The notes below the pieces were generated by a model. It made no database searches. It had not been told where the DNA came from and saw nothing but the letters and a program-made list of their open reading frames with translations. 64,000 nt of DNA from an uncultured Acidobacteriota bacterium. GTDB taxonomy: Bacteria; Acidobacteriota; Thermoanaerobaculia; Gp7-AA8. Shown here in pieces: positions 9,871 through 32,577 of this stretch (positions within the stretch are counted from its first letter, which is position 1; each line of letters begins with the position of its first letter). The stretch is from contig CAWGHO010000002.1 in assembly GCA_963822445.1 (NCBI GenBank), forward strand, positions 32,001 to 96,000, read 5' to 3'. The position numbers and the translations under genes are program-made.

Positions 9871-11616
9871 ATGAAAGCCGTCCTGTCGAGCCGCTCTAAT
9901 CTCACCTCCTCCAAAGCGCCGACCGGGATCACCGGGCTGGATGAAATTACCGGTGGAGGCCTTCCTCGGGGCCGCACGACGCTGCTCGTCGGAGGATCGG
10001 GATCGGGCAAAACGATCCTCGGCACTGCAGTTTCTCGTTCACGGCGCGAAAGAGTGCGATGAGGCCGGCATCTTTGTCGCGTTCGAAGAGACGCCGTCGC
10101 GAATCGTCGTCGAACGCTGAAACGTTTCGGATGGGATCTCGAGGACCTGCAGAAAAAGAACCTGTACTTCATGGACGCGCAGCCCGCGCCCGATCTCGTA
10201 CAGTCCGGAACGTTCGATCTCAGCGGTATGCTCGCCGCACTGGGCGCGAAGGTCGAAGAAATCGGCGCCACACGCATCGTCTTCGATGCTTTGGACATCA
10301 TGCTGGCGCTGCTGGTCGATCCGACCGCGCAGAGACGCGAGATTTACCGGCTCCATGCCTGGCTGCTGCAGCACGAGCTCACGGGCATCATCACCTTGAA
10401 GGCCGACAGCGACGAGACCGGCTCCGTCAAACAGCCGTTCGGCTTCATGCAGTTCATGGTCGATTGCGCGGTCATCCTCAATCACACCGTCGTGCTCGGC
10501 GTGTCCCAGCGCAACCTGCGCGTCCAGAAATACCGCGGCTCGAGCTTCGATGAAAACGAGTCGCCGTTCCTGATCGGCAAAGGCGGATTCGAAGTCGCCG
10601 TAACCCGAACCCTCGGCCGCGGCGACGCCGAAGTGACGAACGAGCGCGTATCGAGCGGCGTCGCGCGCTTGGACACCATGCTCGGTGGCGGCTATTACCG
10701 CGGTGCTAGTGTGCTCATCACCGGCTTTCCCGGAACTGCGAAAACAACGCTGAGCGGTGCTTTCGCGGAGGCTGCCTGCGCGCGCGGCGAGCGGACGATG
10801 TTCGTCAGCTTCGATTCCGATTCCAACGAAGTAATCCGCAACCTCGGCTCGGTAGGCATCCAGCTCAATCGCTTCGTCGAGGACGGGACGCTGCACATGG
10901 TTTCCGCCCGCACAATCACCGGAAGCGCGGAAACCTACCTCGTGCGCATCAAGACCCTCGCAAAAGCGCATCGCGCGCGTTGCCTGGTCGTCGATCCGGT
11001 TTCGACACTATCGAAATCCGGCAATGAACTGACGGCACACAGTGTCGCGGAACGGCTCATCGACTGGTCCAAGGCCGAAGGAATCACTCTTGTCTGTACA
11101 AGCCTGCTCGATGAGATGTCCAGTCAGTCCGAAGCCGGCTCGCCTCTGCAGATTTCGACACTGGCCGACACCTGGATTCATCTCAATTACCTGGTACAGG
11201 CCGGTGAGCGCAATCGCGGCATGTCCATCATCAAGTCCCGCGGAACGGCGCACTCCAATCAGGTGCGCGAGCTGATTCTCAGCGACGCCGGAATTACAGT
11301 CACAGACGCGTACACGGCCGGCGGCGAAGTGCTCATGGGCACAATGCGCTGGGAAAAGGAAAGCGCCGAGCGTCATGCCTGCGAAATCGCGACGGTCGAG
11401 GCAAAGCTAAGAAGCGTGAAGCTGGAAGCCGAGGAGGCAGAGCTCGAAGCGCGGGTGAAGTCGCTGCAGGTCGAACTGGCGGCCAAGCTCACGGAGAAAG
11501 CGGTCCTGGCGCGAAGTGCTGAGGTTCACGAGCAGGAGTTGCTGCTGGGACGCGACAGAATGCGCGAGTTGCGCGGCAGCGACGTCACGTCAGAGGCTCT
11601 GAGTGTGTCGCGATGA
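9871..11616 (+). CDS. kaiC: circadian clock protein KaiC homolog; three +1 indels at about 10021, 10111 and 10125
   Basis: CI Walker A GSGSGKT. Removing three single bases gives ALQFLVHG...VAFEET...FGWDL in frame with ORF 10171..11616. Also KYRGS, a CII domain, and the ST phosphosite pair in QISTLADTW. Confidence 0.88.
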
Positions 11617-11963
11617 TCCCAGAGATCTTCACGTTCCGGCTGTACGTCTCCGGTGATGCGCCGAATTCATTGCAGGCCATCGCCAACCTGACCCAGCTCT
11701 GCGAGACGCATCTTCCCGATCGTCATCTGATCGAGATCGTCGACGTGCTGCTCGATCCGAAGCGCGCGCTGACTGAAGCGATTTACATGACGCCGACGCT
11801 GGTCACCGACTCGCCCTATCCCGGCCATCGCATCGTCGGCACGCTCAGCAACACCGAGCCGATCCTGCAGATCCTCGGCCTCGGCGCCGCACAACGGCGT
11901 GTCTTCCCGGGCCTCAAAGACCGGGATTCCGCGCCGCAATTGCGGACGGTCAGCGAGACGTAG
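11613..11963 (+). CDS. kaiB: KaiB homolog
   Basis: FRLYVSG..PNSLQAIANL...IEIVDV...TPTLV...P...IVGTLS. ATGA overlap with kaiC. Confidence 0.92.
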   Translation: MIPEIFTFRLYVSGDAPNSLQAIANLTQLCETHLPDRHLIEIVDVLLDPKRALTEAIYMTPTLVTDSPYPGHRIVGTLSNTEPILQILGLGAAQRRVFPGLKDRDSAPQLRTVSET

Positions 11964-12042
11964 CGAAGAGCGGTCGTGTCATGAACGGCAGGATGGCGAT
12001 CTTGAGATTCAGCCCGATCACGCTGAAGAGATCCGCCGCAGG
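11950..12042 (-). pseudogene. C-terminal fragment of the gene whose N-terminal part lies at 13643-14050
   Basis: Manual translation gives PAADLFSVIGLNLKIAILPFMTRPLFATSR*, which matches the recalled C-terminus (ADLF...L..K.AILPF) of that conserved hypothetical family. Confidence 0.55.
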
Positions 12043-12044
12043 GA

Positions 12045-12086
12045 CGACGAGAGGCCTCCGGCGGGCCGGCCCGTGGCCGGCCCGCC
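12045..12086. repeat. left part of a REP-like palindrome interrupted by IS110 (right part at 13626-13642)
   Basis: Rejoining the flanks gives a perfect hairpin: gacgagaggcctccggcgggccggcc-cgt-ggccggcccgccggaggcctctcgtc. Confidence 0.9.
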
Positions 12087-12195
12087 TATAGCTTGTCCGG
12101 CCGTCTCTCCGCTTCTCCCTCAGCCCTCAGAGAAGTACCCGTTGGGTGGCAATCGGGAGAATCGGGTTCAGGCGGCGCGATACTGAGAAGAAGGG

Positions 12196-12338
12196 TTCGT
12201 CCCGCTACGAATTCCGCCCGTGTTCGGATCGACGAATCCCTCCGGACTTTCGAGCGGGACGAAGTGCTTTGGCCCGAAACGCATTCTCAGATGCTGTCGG
12301 AGCACGACTCGACTATAGGCCTTGCGCGCGGCCAAAGC
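12196..12338 (+). ncRNA. IS110 bridge RNA (target-binding and donor-binding loops); the true 5' end is probably nearer 12100
   Basis: Two stem/internal-loop/stem modules whose loop strands match the target flanks (CCGCCCG, CCTCCGG) and the donor junction (CTCAGATG, CTATAGG). Confidence 0.82.
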
Positions 12339-12358
12339 CAACCCGAAGGGAGGGTGTG

Positions 12359-13603
12359 ATGAGCGAGTTCGAGTTTGGGGCGTTGGTGGGACTGGATTGG
12401 GGTGACACATCGCACGAGGTGGCTCTTTGGGACGAGCAACAGCAGACGTGCACGAAAGAGCGCATCGAGCACACGCCTGCGGCTCTGCGCGCATGGATCG
12501 AAGCGCTGCAGGTGCGCTTCGGCGGGGCACCGATCGCCGTGGCCATCGAGCAGTCCCGCGGCGCGGTCTTCGACGCGCTCAGCGGCTATCCGTTCGTCAC
12601 GTTGTATCCGATCAACCCACGCAGTGCAGCCCGGTATCGTGAGGCGTTTCATCCGAGCCTTTCGAAAGACGATCCGACCGACGCGGCGTCCTTGCTCGAC
12701 CTGCTTCGTAAGCACCGCAACGAGCTGCGCCCGTTCATCGCCGACGACGCTTCTACGCGTCTGCTGCGGCTTCTGACCGAGGATCGGCGGGAGCTCGTCG
12801 ATCAGAGGACGCAACACGTCCAACGCATGACCGATCGGCTCAAGACGTACTACCCGCAGGCGCTCCGGTGGGCCGGCGCGTTGATTACGGCGCAGGCCTG
12901 TGACTACCTCGAACGCTGGCCGACGCTCGAGGCCATCCAAAGGGCTCGGCCGTCCGCGATAAGGAGGTTCTATGAGCGTTATCATCACGCGGCCGCGTGG
13001 ATCGACCAGAAGCTCGCCGAGATCCGTTCAGAGGTCGCGTTCCACGACGATCAGGTCACCACTGACGCTGCCGTGCTGCTGATCGGAAGCGAGGTTGCGC
13101 AGATCCGGGCTCTCAACGCGAGCATCGCCACGTACGACCAGAAGATCTCGGCGGCGTTCGCCGCCCACCAGGACGCGTCGATCTTCGCGAGCTTCCCTGG
13201 CGCCGGCCAACAGCTCGCGCCGCGGCTCGCCGCCGCCTTCGGGACCGATCGCAAGCGCTTCGGCAGCGCCGTCAACGTCGCCACCCGAAGCGGCATCGCC
13301 CCGGTTCTCCGCCGGAGCGGCAAAACGGCGGTCGTACACATGCGCTGGGCTTGTCCGAAGTTCCTGCGTCAGACGTTCCATGAGTACGCCCGCGTGTCGA
13401 TCGGTCAGTCCCTATGGGCTCGAGCCTTCTACAAGCAGCAACGCGCGCGCGGACACAGCCACCACGAGGCTATCCGCACGCTCGCTTACCGCTGGATCCG
13501 CGTCCTTTACGCCTGCTGGAACAATCGCACCGTCTACGACGAAGCTCTCTATCTGCGGCAGCTCGCCACCCGAGGCTCAACCCTCGCCACAGCTGCTCCC
13601 TGA
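12359..13603 (+). CDS. IS110-family transposase/recombinase (DEDD RuvC-like plus Tnp20 domain)
   Basis: GLDW, AIE, KDDPTDA, PGAG and GIAPVLRRSG (catalytic Ser). RBS GGGAGGG. Confidence 0.95.
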   Translation: MSEFEFGALVGLDWGDTSHEVALWDEQQQTCTKERIEHTPAALRAWIEALQVRFGGAPIAVAIEQSRGAVFDALSGYPFVTLYPINPRSAARYREAFHPSLSKDDPTDAASLLDLLRKHRNELRPFIADDASTRLLRLLTEDRRELVDQRTQHVQRMTDRLKTYYPQALRWAGALITAQACDYLERWPTLEAIQRARPSAIRRFYERYHHAAAWIDQKLAEIRSEVAFHDDQVTTDAAVLLIGSEVAQIRALNASIATYDQKISAAFAAHQDASIFASFPGAGQQLAPRLAAAFGTDRKRFGSAVNVATRSGIAPVLRRSGKTAVVHMRWACPKFLRQTFHEYARVSIGQSLWARAFYKQQRARGHSHHEAIRTLAYRWIRVLYACWNNRTVYDEALYLRQLATRGSTLATAAP

Positions 13604-13604
13604 C

Positions 13605-13610
13605 TTGACA
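13605..13610 (+). promoter_or_regulatory. -35 box of the IS circle-junction promoter
   Basis: TTGACA lies 17 nt (including the CC core) from TATAGC at 12087-12092 only when the two ends are joined. Confidence 0.75.
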
Positions 13611-13642
13611 GGAAGGCTCAGATGTCCGGAGGCCTCTCGTCG

Positions 13643-14050
13643 CTGAGCTGCGCGATCATCGCGCGCGCGCTCCACGACTTCCACGGTCGTCAGCGGAATC
13701 GCTCTGTGTCCGCGCGACGTCTCGCGCGATTGCCACGCCGCCTCCTGCCCCATCGTCGCCATCAGCGTGAGGCAACGAACCTCCGGTGCGAGTGGTTCGT
13801 CCCCTGCGGCCGCTCGTGCGAACGCTCGCGACTCCTGATCAAGATCGTCATACGGAACGGTCCTGAAAAACCGCACCAGCGCACATGCCGGCTTACCGGA
13901 GTCGTCAACCAACTCGTCGTAGAAAAAGTGAACGACGCGCTCCGCCGCCTCGGACACAGTCGCCGGAGGCGCGTCGTCGAACAGACCACGAACGCGCGTC
14001 CGGCAATCCATCATGTCGGTGAAACCGAACGTGCGGAGGCGATAGGGCAT
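13643..14050 (-). pseudogene. N-terminal part of a conserved hypothetical protein, truncated at the palindrome/IS110
   Basis: ACALVRFF.T.PY..L, CLTL.AT.G, W.SR..SRGH.AIPL, then MIAQL (after a 1-nt shift) running into the palindrome. Confidence 0.7.
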
Positions 14051-14081
14051 CGCGGCAAAGTTAGCACGCCGCCAACCTGCG

Positions 14082-15317
14082 TCACTCGATGTACGCGAAC
14101 CCGATCCGCAGCGCTCCCCGGCTGTACCGCCTCATCCACGACGCCGAGGCCTCGTACGAAGTGTCAGTGATGTCAGAGAACCTCTCGCGGTCCCGCCCGT
14201 CGGCCTGGCGCAACACCACGCCGCCCTTCAGCTCGACGTACGAGCCGCGGATCTTTCTCGTGTATCCGCCCTGGATCAGCTCGAAGGAAGGCTCCCAGCG
14301 CAGGTCGCCGGAAAGGTTGTCCGGATTCTGCCGCGAGTGAACGCGCGCCCATCCCGCCACGAGCTCCGTCGAAAACGAGCTCGCGTCGGAGATCTGCCAA
14401 TGCCGCTCGGCAGACACGTCGAGTCCGTGGGCGGTGGAGTGGCGGGCGATGGTCGTGAATGGCTGGCCGGGGCGGCCGGTGAAGGACGTCTGCTCGCCCA
14501 TCCAGACGAACGGCTCGACCTTCACGAACGTCCCTCGCATCGGCGTGTACGGCTCGTTGGTCGTGTCGAACGTCCAGGACGCGGACAGCATCCGTTCGGT
14601 ATGAAGATCGCGCAAAGGTGTGCCGCCGATGCGGACCGTGCCTTTGACGAAGGTCGTGTCCTCGATTTCGAGCCGCAGCGTCTGATTGGCCGTCACCGGC
14701 AGGCCTACGACGACCTCCGGCGAGAACGTCTTCTCTTCCAGCGAATCGACCGGGCTGCGCACGATCACCGTCGCGAAAACCGGCGTGCCCACGATCTGGT
14801 GACGGGTGTAGCCGAGCTCCCACGCGGAGTAGTTCTTGCGAAACGGATGGCGATTGCGAAGCACGGTCATGCCGAAGTGGGCCAGGCCGCCGTCGCCGAA
14901 CAGCCACCGCACACCAGCGGCCGCATGCTTCCAGTCCGAGGTGGGATCGGGGAACTCGTAGTCGAGCATGTCCACCGGCTGGTTTACCTGGCCGAAACGG
15001 CCGTCGAGGAGAAACCAGAACCGATCGTTCTCCCGGACGCTGATGACCACGACCCGGCGTGTATCGTCCGATCCCGGCTCGAGCGCGTAGCCGGCAGTGA
15101 AGACGGAGGGCGATCGCATCAGCCGGCGCACTCCGGCCCGCACATCCTCTTCCGAGACCTCGCTTCCTTCGCGGAGCAGCGTCTCCGCGGCCAGGAACTG
15201 CGCGTCGACGCGCTGCGCGTTGCGGATCTCGACGCGCTCGATCGTGAATCGCTCCTGGGAACGGGCGGAAAGCGCACACGTGATCAAACAGACAGCAATC
15301 AGAATTCGCCGGATCAT
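14082..15317 (-). CDS. exported protein with one POTRA-like domain and a probable beta-barrel (BamA/TamA-like)
   Basis: Signal peptide, IERVEIRN...LLREG...DVRAGVRRL (POTRA pattern) and amphipathic beta-strands ending IGFAYIE. Confidence 0.6.
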   Translation of the reverse strand: MIRRILIAVCLITCALSARSQERFTIERVEIRNAQRVDAQFLAAETLLREGSEVSEEDVRAGVRRLMRSPSVFTAGYALEPGSDDTRRVVVISVRENDRFWFLLDGRFGQVNQPVDMLDYEFPDPTSDWKHAAAGVRWLFGDGGLAHFGMTVLRNRHPFRKNYSAWELGYTRHQIVGTPVFATVIVRSPVDSLEEKTFSPEVVVGLPVTANQTLRLEIEDTTFVKGTVRIGGTPLRDLHTERMLSASWTFDTTNEPYTPMRGTFVKVEPFVWMGEQTSFTGRPGQPFTTIARHSTAHGLDVSAERHWQISDASSFSTELVAGWARVHSRQNPDNLSGDLRWEPSFELIQGGYTRKIRGSYVELKGGVVLRQADGRDRERFSDITDTSYEASASWMRRYSRGALRIGFAYIE

Positions 15318-31551: not shown

Positions 31552-32577
31552 ATGCAATACCGTCATGTCCGGCTCGTTCCGGTCGCCGTCATCGCCATCG
31601 TTCTCTGCGCCTGTCCCACCGTCGAAAAACCGGTCAACACCGACACGGCGGCAACGGCGACCACCGCCACTTTCGCTACCAACACACCCACCGCCGCATC
31701 CGCGCCGATTCGCATCGGCTACCAGAAGCTCTCCATCTACGCGCCGGTGTTTATCGCGCAGGACAAGGGCTTCTTCCGGGAGCAGGGGTTGACCGTCGAG
31801 CTGTCGCCGTTCACCTCGGCTAATCAGATGATGAATGCGGTCCTCGCCGGACAGCTCGAAGGTACCGGACTGTCGAACGTGCAGGTGGCGTTGTCGGTCG
31901 AGGCGAAGGACCCGGGGAAGGCGCGTTTCATTAACTTCCTGGTCTGGAATCCCGATAGCTACGCCGACTACTTCATCACCCGCAAAGGCAGCGGCATCAA
32001 GACCGTCAAGGGCGTTCAGGAGAAAACCGTTGGAATCCATCCTGGATCTGCGGTGAAGGCGTTCGCCACGGCTCTGCTGGAGAGCGAAGGGGTCGACATC
32101 AAGAAGACACCCATCATCGAGCTCGAGCCGGCCACCATGGCGGCGGCGCTGGTCGCCGGACGCATCGATGCGCTCTACTGCATGGATCCGGTGGCGACGA
32201 AGCTCGTCACGGCCAAACAGGCTGACGTGCTCGTGCATAACCCCATCGGCAAGATAGCGGGGTCGCCGGTGCCAATCTCGGGGACGTTGATCGCCTCGAG
32301 TTTCGCAAAGAGTCGCGCCAATGACGCGCGTTCCTTCGAAGCGGCCATCGAGAAAGCGATCGACTATATCCGGGATCAGGTTAATCATGCCGAGATGGCC
32401 CGGATCGTCGCCAAGTACACGGATGCCACGGCCGAAGACATCCAAAGGGAGCGCGTACCGCAATATTGGAAACGATCGGAAATCGATCGCGCACGGGTGC
32501 GAGCCCTTTCGGATCGCTTCCGTGCGCTCGGGATCATCCCTGAGGGTGTATCGGCCGATAGGATGATCATGGAATGA
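31552..32577 (+). CDS. ABC transporter substrate-binding lipoprotein (SsuA/NMT1/THI5-like)
   Basis: Lipobox [26 protein letters not shown] and ALVAGRIDA...DP. Confidence 0.9.

Follow-up and report, generated by a model that had tools for sequence, protein, structure and literature searches.

The 64,000-nucleotide stretch analyzed here (the window; positions 32,001 to 96,000 of contig CAWGHO010000002.1, G000:C2:32001-96000, in the 6.0 Mb, 64% GC, three-contig genome of an uncultured Acidobacteriota bacterium) very likely carries an intact IS110-group insertion sequence at positions 12087-13625, with a DEDD/serine bridge recombinase, a left end (LE) that encodes a bridge RNA with target and donor loops, and predicted recombination at a CC core by an IS621-like mechanism. 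We consider it probable that this element belongs to a natural bridge-recombinase lineage of Acidobacteriota (Thermoanaerobaculia and Vicinamibacterales) in which the second core base has shifted from T to C, and in sister elements to A, with the guides changing in step, such that the right target guide (RTG) and the right donor guide (RDG) both end in GG.

The element is 1,539 bp long, with CC at 12085-12086 and again at 13626-13627. At the left boundary, CC is followed by TATAGCT from 12087, and at the right boundary CTCAGATGT runs to 13625 and is followed by CC and then GGAGGCCTCTCGTC. Because the bases adjoining the two CCs differ (upstream G versus T, downstream T versus G), the repeated dinucleotide is exactly CC, 2 nt. 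When the left flank, keeping one CC, is connected to the right flank, the result is a perfect, uninterrupted 27-bp stem with a CGT loop (−55 kcal/mol over 105 nt, folding with DNA parameters); the interrupted left flank alone retains a 12-bp hairpin (−20.8 kcal/mol, same parameters). The element and its target site comprise the following parts.

12045..12086, + strand: left half of the target, consisting of a left arm of 27 nt (12045-12071), a CGT loop at 12072-12074 and the initial 12 nt of the right arm
12054..12066, − strand: second uninterrupted target motif (GCCCGCCGGAGGC on the minus strand) in the left palindrome arm, core 12060-12061
12078-12084, + strand: left target (LT) positions 1-7 (CGGCCCG), within the left half of the target
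12085-12086, + strand: left CC core copy, the last 2 nt of the left half of the target
12087..12358, + strand: LE, 272 nt, non-coding, encoding the predicted bridge RNA
12087..12092, + strand: TATAGC, the −10 half of a putative junction promoter and also the start of the right donor (RD) read by the RDG
12348..12354, + strand: Shine-Dalgarno-like GGGAGGG, 4 nt before the ATG
12359..13603, + strand: recombinase gene, 414 amino acids (DEDD RuvC-like domain at residues 10-166, Tnp domain at residues 274-359)
13604..13625, + strand: right end (RE), 22 nt, holding the −35 box TTGACA (13605-13610) and the left donor CAGATGT (13619-13625)
13626..13642, + strand: right CC core copy (13626-13627) and the last 15 nt of the hairpin right arm; the right target (RT) starts with GGAGG

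The genome contains nine full-length copies of the element (96%–100% identity), in addition to two rearranged loci. All nine start with TATAGCTTGTCC, end with GGCTCAGATGT, are bordered by CC on both sides and sit between ...GCCCGCC and CCGGAGGC..., in a single orientation within one repeat family, as expected of sequence- and orientation-specific insertion (10 left and 12 right junctions were counted in the assembly). As these flanks are themselves repeats, comparing copies alone cannot fix the ends, which are instead fixed by empty sites: the exact motif GCCCGCCGGAGG occurs uninterrupted 41 times in the genome, each time with a single CC (left target CGGCCCG in 32 of the 41 and CCGCCCG in 8). 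An earlier reading of the letters alone (the sequence-only reading) had claimed base-precise ends, a CC on either side, and a hairpin restored on removal of the element with one CC; the termini and flanks shared by all nine copies, the empty sites and the fold of the joined flanks bear these out.

The target repeat is similar to repetitive extragenic palindromes (REPs), with a stem-loop GCCGGCC-CGT-GGCCGGC whose 3′ arm overlaps left-target positions 1-4. Unusually, the two halves of the window's site are fully symmetric and form a double repeat; another copy could insert head-to-head into the second target, which is intact and lies on the minus strand at 12054-12066. The repeat is found throughout the genus, frequently in convergent pairs spaced by about 110 bp (e.g., G000:C2:381874-381912 with 381983-382026). 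The element itself is patchily distributed, being detected in 5 of 34 other genomes of the genus (E ≤ 1e-50), many of which are fragmented assemblies (genome G002 enters this count only). Regarding the two rearranged loci, G000:C3:469301-470839 (L010, L012, L014) is a further copy in which element positions 415-575 are inverted and the recombinase gene is broken, with inversion breakpoints in short inverted repeats containing TCGAA. The other, G000:C1:940359-941429 (L011, L013), has partial copies (element positions 847-1539 and 1161-1539) placed head-to-head with GAT microhomology; their outer right ends adjoin near-identical, inverted flanks, reflecting either a fold-back duplication or an assembly artifact.

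The recombinase matches PF01548 (DEDD_Tnp_IS110; E = 4.2e-28, residues 10-166) and PF02371 (E = 5.1e-11, residues 274-359), and scores 141.8 bits against a cutoff of 140 for NCBIfam NF033542 ("IS110 family RNA-guided transposase"), in agreement with the family assigned in the sequence-only reading. The sole PDB sequence match was the ISCro4 transposase (E = 2e-4), with parts of the protein aligned only. Across 37 aligned relatives, residues D13, E64, D104, D105, D108 and G321 never vary, and 36 of these relatives have S320. Judging by motif spacing, D13, E64, D105, D108 and S320 are the likely equivalents of the catalytic residues D11, E60, D102, D105 and S241 of IS621. The 414-amino-acid open reading frame (ORF) is intact in all nine full copies, including that in the window, which had been described as an intact element, and three copies encode the consensus protein. 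Variant codons among the nine comprise 37 synonymous and 29 non-synonymous changes, while LE positions 104-241 (the two guide loops) and both termini are invariant.

The reference bridge recombinase is that of IS621 (Escherichia coli, IS110 group; Durrant et al. 2024, PMC11208160; Hiraizumi et al. 2024, PMC11208158). According to these reports, the left target guide (LTG) and left donor guide (LDG) of IS621 are located on the 5′ side of the loops, pair with the bottom strand and hence read like the top strand, and the guides of the 3′ side, the RTG and RDG, pair with the top strand including the core. Each right guide is followed by a 2-nt handshake guide, which, once strands have been exchanged, pairs with the other DNA at positions 6-7 (PMC11208158). 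The left end of the window element fits this scheme, with segments on the 5′ and 3′ sides of two internal loops, as listed below (all on the + strand).

12100..12176: predicted 5′ stem-loop of the bridge RNA (LE 14-90), from RNAalifold on 5 sequences (32 pairs, 1 compensatory; weak support)
12196..12263: target-binding loop module, with an outer stem (12196-12206/12253-12263 and 12208-12211/12249-12252) and an apical hairpin (12223-12236)
12214..12222: LTG, CCGCCCG (12214-12220) followed by U and G at the core positions, in the same sense as the target top strand
12239..12245: RTG, CCUCCGG, the reverse complement of CC + GGAGG
12246..12247: target-loop handshake guide, AC, the complement of GT at donor positions 6-7 (13624-13625) and not of CG at target positions 6-7
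12266..12338: donor-binding loop module, with outer stem 12266-12274/12330-12338, inner stem 12280-12283/12323-12326 and apical hairpin 12296-12308
12286..12295: LDG, CUCAGAUG (12286-12293) followed by C and U; the first 8 nt equal right-end bases 13617-13624
12313..12319: RDG, CUAUAGG, the reverse complement of CC + TATAG
12320..12321: donor-loop handshake guide, CC, whose first C can pair with target position 7 (G) and not with donor position 7 (T)

Both the RTG and the RDG end in GG opposite CC, so the top-strand core is read cleanly by the two right guides. The handshake dinucleotides of both loops pair with the non-cognate rather than the cognate DNA, following the rule taken from the IS621 work (PMC11208158). 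The LTG matches the CCGCCCG variant of the repeat, which is found at 3 of the 9 occupied sites, at 7/7 positions. Several details fit the assignment less well. The LTG matches the window's own CGGCCCG at 6/7 non-core positions, and the U and G at its core positions give a wobble and a mismatch. In the LDG, C mismatches donor position 7, and the next U stands opposite the first core G. Moreover, the LE alone has an unremarkable minimum free energy fold (z = −1.88); this single-sequence fold is not significant, and the structure was taken from comparison instead. An Rfam search of 11500-14200 (E up to 1) returned no bridge RNA family, the lone match (BTH_s19, E = 0.9) being a chance match on the opposite strand inside the gene. 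Two other guide placements were rejected. GGCCCG at LE 185-190, considered as an LTG, forms part of the donor loop's basal stem and does not vary among relatives that have other targets, and an LDG register of UCAGAUG + C was discarded because Vicinamibacterales elements match the right end perfectly in the other register.

For comparison, we used 76 related loci, comprising 6 close relatives and 70 others. The six close loci derive from metagenome-assembled genomes (MAGs; five labelled Thermoanaerobaculia and one Longimicrobiales) and are 82%–89% identical in protein and 83%–88% in DNA sequence. All six keep the same ends and CC core. The donor loop is almost invariant among them (the donor-binding module, which contains helices 3-5, is nearly invariant in 7/7 close relatives) and the LTG varies with the target. 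For example, the LTG is GGCCCGCC in L015 and CGGCCGCC in L020, where it fits a different repeat, as L020 is inserted in another family (...CCCGGCCG-CC). A second repeat family (…GGCCGCCGGAGGC, 13 exact copies) is unoccupied in the genome studied here, yet is the target of L020.

A covariance model built on the two loops, with 147 positions and 36 pairs, matched 61 of the 70 other loci. In 59 cases the match was full length and directly upstream of the recombinase gene, and the remaining 2 were 5′-truncated, cut by contig ends. Across 41 distinct rows, in an alignment fitted to the model's own structure, 94.2% of cells were paired and 30 of 36 pairs showed compensatory change, compared with 32%–40% paired in a control with the partner shifted by 1-3 columns. 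For helices 1 and 2 of the target loop, the paired fractions were 95.8% and 92.7%, with compensatory changes in 17 of 19 pairs. The guides also follow their own targets. The RTG matched its own right flank at 6.4 of 7 positions (n = 20) versus 2.9 of 7 for the flanks of other elements (26 distinct target loops). The LTG matched its own flank at 6.26 of 8 positions versus 3.3 of 8 for foreign ones, with a register tolerance of ±1 for own and foreign pairs alike, and none of 2,000 permutations scored as high (26-27 distinct elements), although relatedness of the sequences inflates such shuffle and permutation tests. Both the fitting of the pair counts and this relatedness count against taking the figures at full value. 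Subterminal inverted repeats flanking the donor also covary among relatives, being 9 bp long in Vicinamibacterales (GGCACAACT/AGTTGTGCC) and 5 bp in Blastocatellia elements (CACCT/AGGTG; ends compared, L026 and L035); in the window element the repeat is 3 bp exact (GCT/AGC, 13616-13618 with 12090-12092).

By analogy with IS621, the element would leave as a circle with one CC at its RE-LE junction, which would unite the −35 box TTGACA of the RE with the −10 box TATAGC of the LE and drive transcription of the bridge RNA, and probably also of the recombinase gene. This RNA would then pair with the donor junction via the LDG and RDG and with the repeated GC-rich hairpin via the LTG and RTG, and strands would be exchanged at the shared CC. 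Recent IS621 work, in the part considered here, leaves a double- versus single-stranded circle intermediate undecided.

The sequence-only reading inferred that the element is probably active, and the nine intact ORFs, the invariant LE positions 104-241 and termini, the split of variant codons and the patchy distribution within the genus speak for this. It is unlikely, although the possibility carries some weight, that the window copy (or every copy) is non-autonomous, the window copy being an aging insertion with an impaired recombinase that could move only with help in trans from the three consensus copies, or not at all. In favor of this, the protein of the window copy differs from the nine-copy consensus by 9 amino acids (6 synonymous and 10 non-synonymous changes in the gene), and two of its private substitutions, F183Y and H208Y, affect strongly conserved residues (F at 183 in 35/36 relatives and H at 208 in 33/36). 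This copy may depend in trans on the three with the consensus protein. One more copy has been inactivated by internal inversion, and another locus is rearranged. In addition, no RE-CC-LE junction is present in the genome assembly, and no circle junction, transcript or recombination product was observed, the reads having been represented by metagenome contigs only. Contigs of four metagenome runs (Logan), the best-matching of which shared 0.25 of sequence words, contained fragments of the element and its relatives with no joints, which says nothing for or against circles or empty sites. Against this possibility, the window ORF is intact and retains D13, E64, D105, D108 and S320, no other copy differs from it in the ends or in either guide loop, and three copies encode the consensus protein.

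The putative junction promoter consists of TTGACA (13605-13610), a 17-nt spacer made up of 15 nt of RE and the 2-nt core, and TATAGC (12087-12092). As the sequence-only reading stated, this arrangement is present only across joined ends: in a scan of 11600-14100, the + strand of the integrated copy had no sigma-70-like site, and the flank provides no −35 box. Of 25 distinct RE-LE pairs, 20 have TTGAC 15-16 nt ahead of the core; the others belong to four gammaproteobacterial elements and one broken copy. Because TTGAC is outside the donor sequence read by the RNA, promoter function best explains its conservation. The predicted stem-loop from LE 14 would fit a transcript start a few bases past the −10 box. 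Within 11600-14100, a single sigma-70-like site was detected, TTGGCT-18-TATAGT on the minus strand (12312-12341), which overlaps the RDG and may be due to chance (shuffled sequence averages 0.3 such sites).

Alternatively, the two hexamers could serve recombination only, with expression arising from kaiC-kaiB read-through or from a promoter type outside the scan, which we regard as improbable. In favor of this possibility, the −10 hexamer TATAGC is missing the final T that is usual in the consensus and is kept by relatives with TATAGT, and the pair would not be counted as a promoter under the scan's own rule. Furthermore, TATAG is constrained as a donor half-site read by the RDG, so its conservation is no proof of promoter function. 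The element is also located downstream of kaiB in the same direction, the scan does not cover an Acidobacteriota promoter consensus, and integrated IS621 loci are reported to express bridge RNA weakly (Hiraizumi et al. 2026, PMC13626964). Against it, a perfect TTGACA at 17-nt spacing is expected by chance about 3 times in 10,000 over three spacings (base frequencies, 64% GC), the same distance is kept in the 20 of 25 distinct relatives at a place outside the 14-nt donor, and junction promoters are established for IS621 and ISPpu10.

The sequence-only reading also proposed CC as the recombination core, and the GG ends of the RTG and RDG opposite a CC found on both sides of the element agree with this. 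It is very improbable that the two CCs are instead an ordinary 2-bp target-site duplication from a staggered cut, which from sequence alone looks the same as a core shared by donor and target, since the GG that terminates each right guide stands exactly opposite CC, the final dinucleotide of both guides varies among relatives together with the flanking one (CT, AT, GT and AA), and conservative recombination at a core has been solved structurally for the DEDD/serine recombinase family (PMC11208158).

With CC read as the core, we deduced the cores of the relatives from the last two bases of the RDG and RTG. The two agreed except in a few rows, where only the first core base differs or a loop is one base longer, and the flanks agreed with the guide-derived cores wherever the ends were located. 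By RDG, the 61 model matches have CT (32), CC (13), AA (7), AT (6), TT (2) and GT (1) cores. The 13 CC matches are all from Vicinamibacterales (5 MAGs), and the window element and its six close relatives provide 7 more, such that CC is found at 19 loci beyond the window element (6 close relatives and 13 Vicinamibacterales). A quick maximum-likelihood tree of 38 distinct proteins of at least 400 amino acids (shorter and identical ones dropped) placed the 16 CC rows in one group nested among CT elements, with a Shimodaira-Hasegawa-like approximate likelihood-ratio test (SH-aLRT) value of 86. Hence, CC is a lineage trait and not an oddity of this copy; as read from guides and flanks, it is heritable in an acidobacterial sub-clade whose relatives mostly have CT.

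Hiraizumi et al. (2024, PMC11208158) describe the second T of the core as "almost invariant" in IS621 and related orthologues, where it is contacted by the main-chain amide of G63. The window element, having a CC core, departs from the CT core with near-invariant T of IS621-like orthologues: the second core base is C here and A in another sub-lineage. At residues 14-16 of the recombinase (window 12398-12406), beside the catalytic D13, the 16/16 CC-core proteins have DWGD or DWDD and the 21/21 non-CC proteins have DWAD or DWAN, a correlation that is confounded by common descent. In the gammaproteobacterial elements L048, L051, L054 and L056, the left core is CT and the right core GT, indicating that the first base may differ between ends while the second stays T; the LDG of these elements agrees with the right-end motif over no more than its first 7 nt.

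The element shares with IS621 the order of long LE, recombinase gene and short RE, the lack of classical terminal inverted repeats, a 2-nt core at both ends and once in the empty site, and a putative −35 box in the RE with a −10 box in the LE. Further similarities are a two-loop LE RNA with the left guide on the 5′ side (top-strand sense) and the right guide on the 3′ side ending opposite the core, a 2-nt handshake guide after the right guide that matches the non-cognate DNA, and a repeated extragenic palindrome as the target. It differs in its core (CC versus CT), protein length (414 versus 326 amino acids, with distant similarity), LE length (272 versus 191 nt) and RTG length (7 versus 4 nt), and in an LTG and LDG without clean core pairing. 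Given its CC core and distant protein, the element is not an IS621-type orthologue, though it would work like IS621.

ISPpu10 (Pseudomonas putida, IS110 group) targets a REP with a 5′ stem-loop (Na et al. 2026 preprint, 10.64898/2026.03.19.712850). The window element resembles it in inserting in one orientation into many copies of a REP-like element, in a left target partly within the 3′ arm of a GC-rich stem-loop (here overlapping LT positions 1-4), and in repeats that often form convergent pairs. However, the core of ISPpu10 is CT, and the window site differs in its full symmetry, being a double repeat whose other strand holds a second intact target. In IS1111-group elements, the guide RNA is encoded by a long right end and the subterminal inverted repeats measure 7-17 bp (Siddiquee et al. 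2024, PMC11187229). The window element shares with these seekRNA elements a DEDD recombinase, a predicted RNA-guided target choice and a putative circle junction promoter. Membership in the IS1111 group was ruled out by the 22-nt RE, a guide RNA in the LE (272 nt) and a subterminal repeat of 3 bp exact (GCT...AGC). The DEDD and Tnp-serine domains, the long LE and short RE, the single core in the empty site and the guide RNA identified in silico are those of the IS110 group.

The mechanism itself has been in print since 2024, and the only new point for the bridge-recombinase field, which is modestly interesting, is the natural occurrence of CC as a core and the variety of cores found in a single RNA family. 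Published work, as far as the passages considered here go, treats CT as a conserved catalytic center, and human-genome designs filter for CT or GT. The phrase "CC core" was not found in the searched literature mentioning IS110 or bridge RNA. The methods of Durrant et al. (PMC11208160) select "only CT core guides", which implies that other cores had already been seen; the word "core" is absent from two of their supplements and "LTG" from one, and a list of natural cores may exist in others. The element provides a clean annotation example, with exact ends, core, four guides, both handshake guides and 41 free target sites, and the covariance model detects the RNA in relatives down to 37% protein identity. 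The clade, with its CC, AA/GA, AT, GT and TT cores and matching guides, offers a natural panel on core specificity. If the enzymes are active, core specificity would be an evolvable property of the protein-RNA pair, and orthologues would open CC-core sites that are avoided by current CT/GT-restricted bridge editors.

Directly upstream of the element (window 10171-11963) are genes encoding a KaiC-like protein (481 amino acids, PF06745, 5e-57) and a KaiB-like protein (116 amino acids, PF07689, 1.3e-16), which overlap by 4 nt. Orthologues of both are present in relatives from the genus (75%–80% DNA identity), with synteny stopping past kaiB. An orthologous empty site downstream of kaiB was not seen in this comparison, which left out L093 and the partial L100: the right flank had no match, and synteny stopped past kaiB at 7 of 9 relatives' loci. 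On the other side, an ORF of 157 amino acids (window 13577-14050, minus strand; no Pfam or NCBIfam match) crosses the hairpin's right half and stops within the element, 49 nt in from its right boundary. If this ORF is a real gene, the insertion supplies its last ~16 codons.

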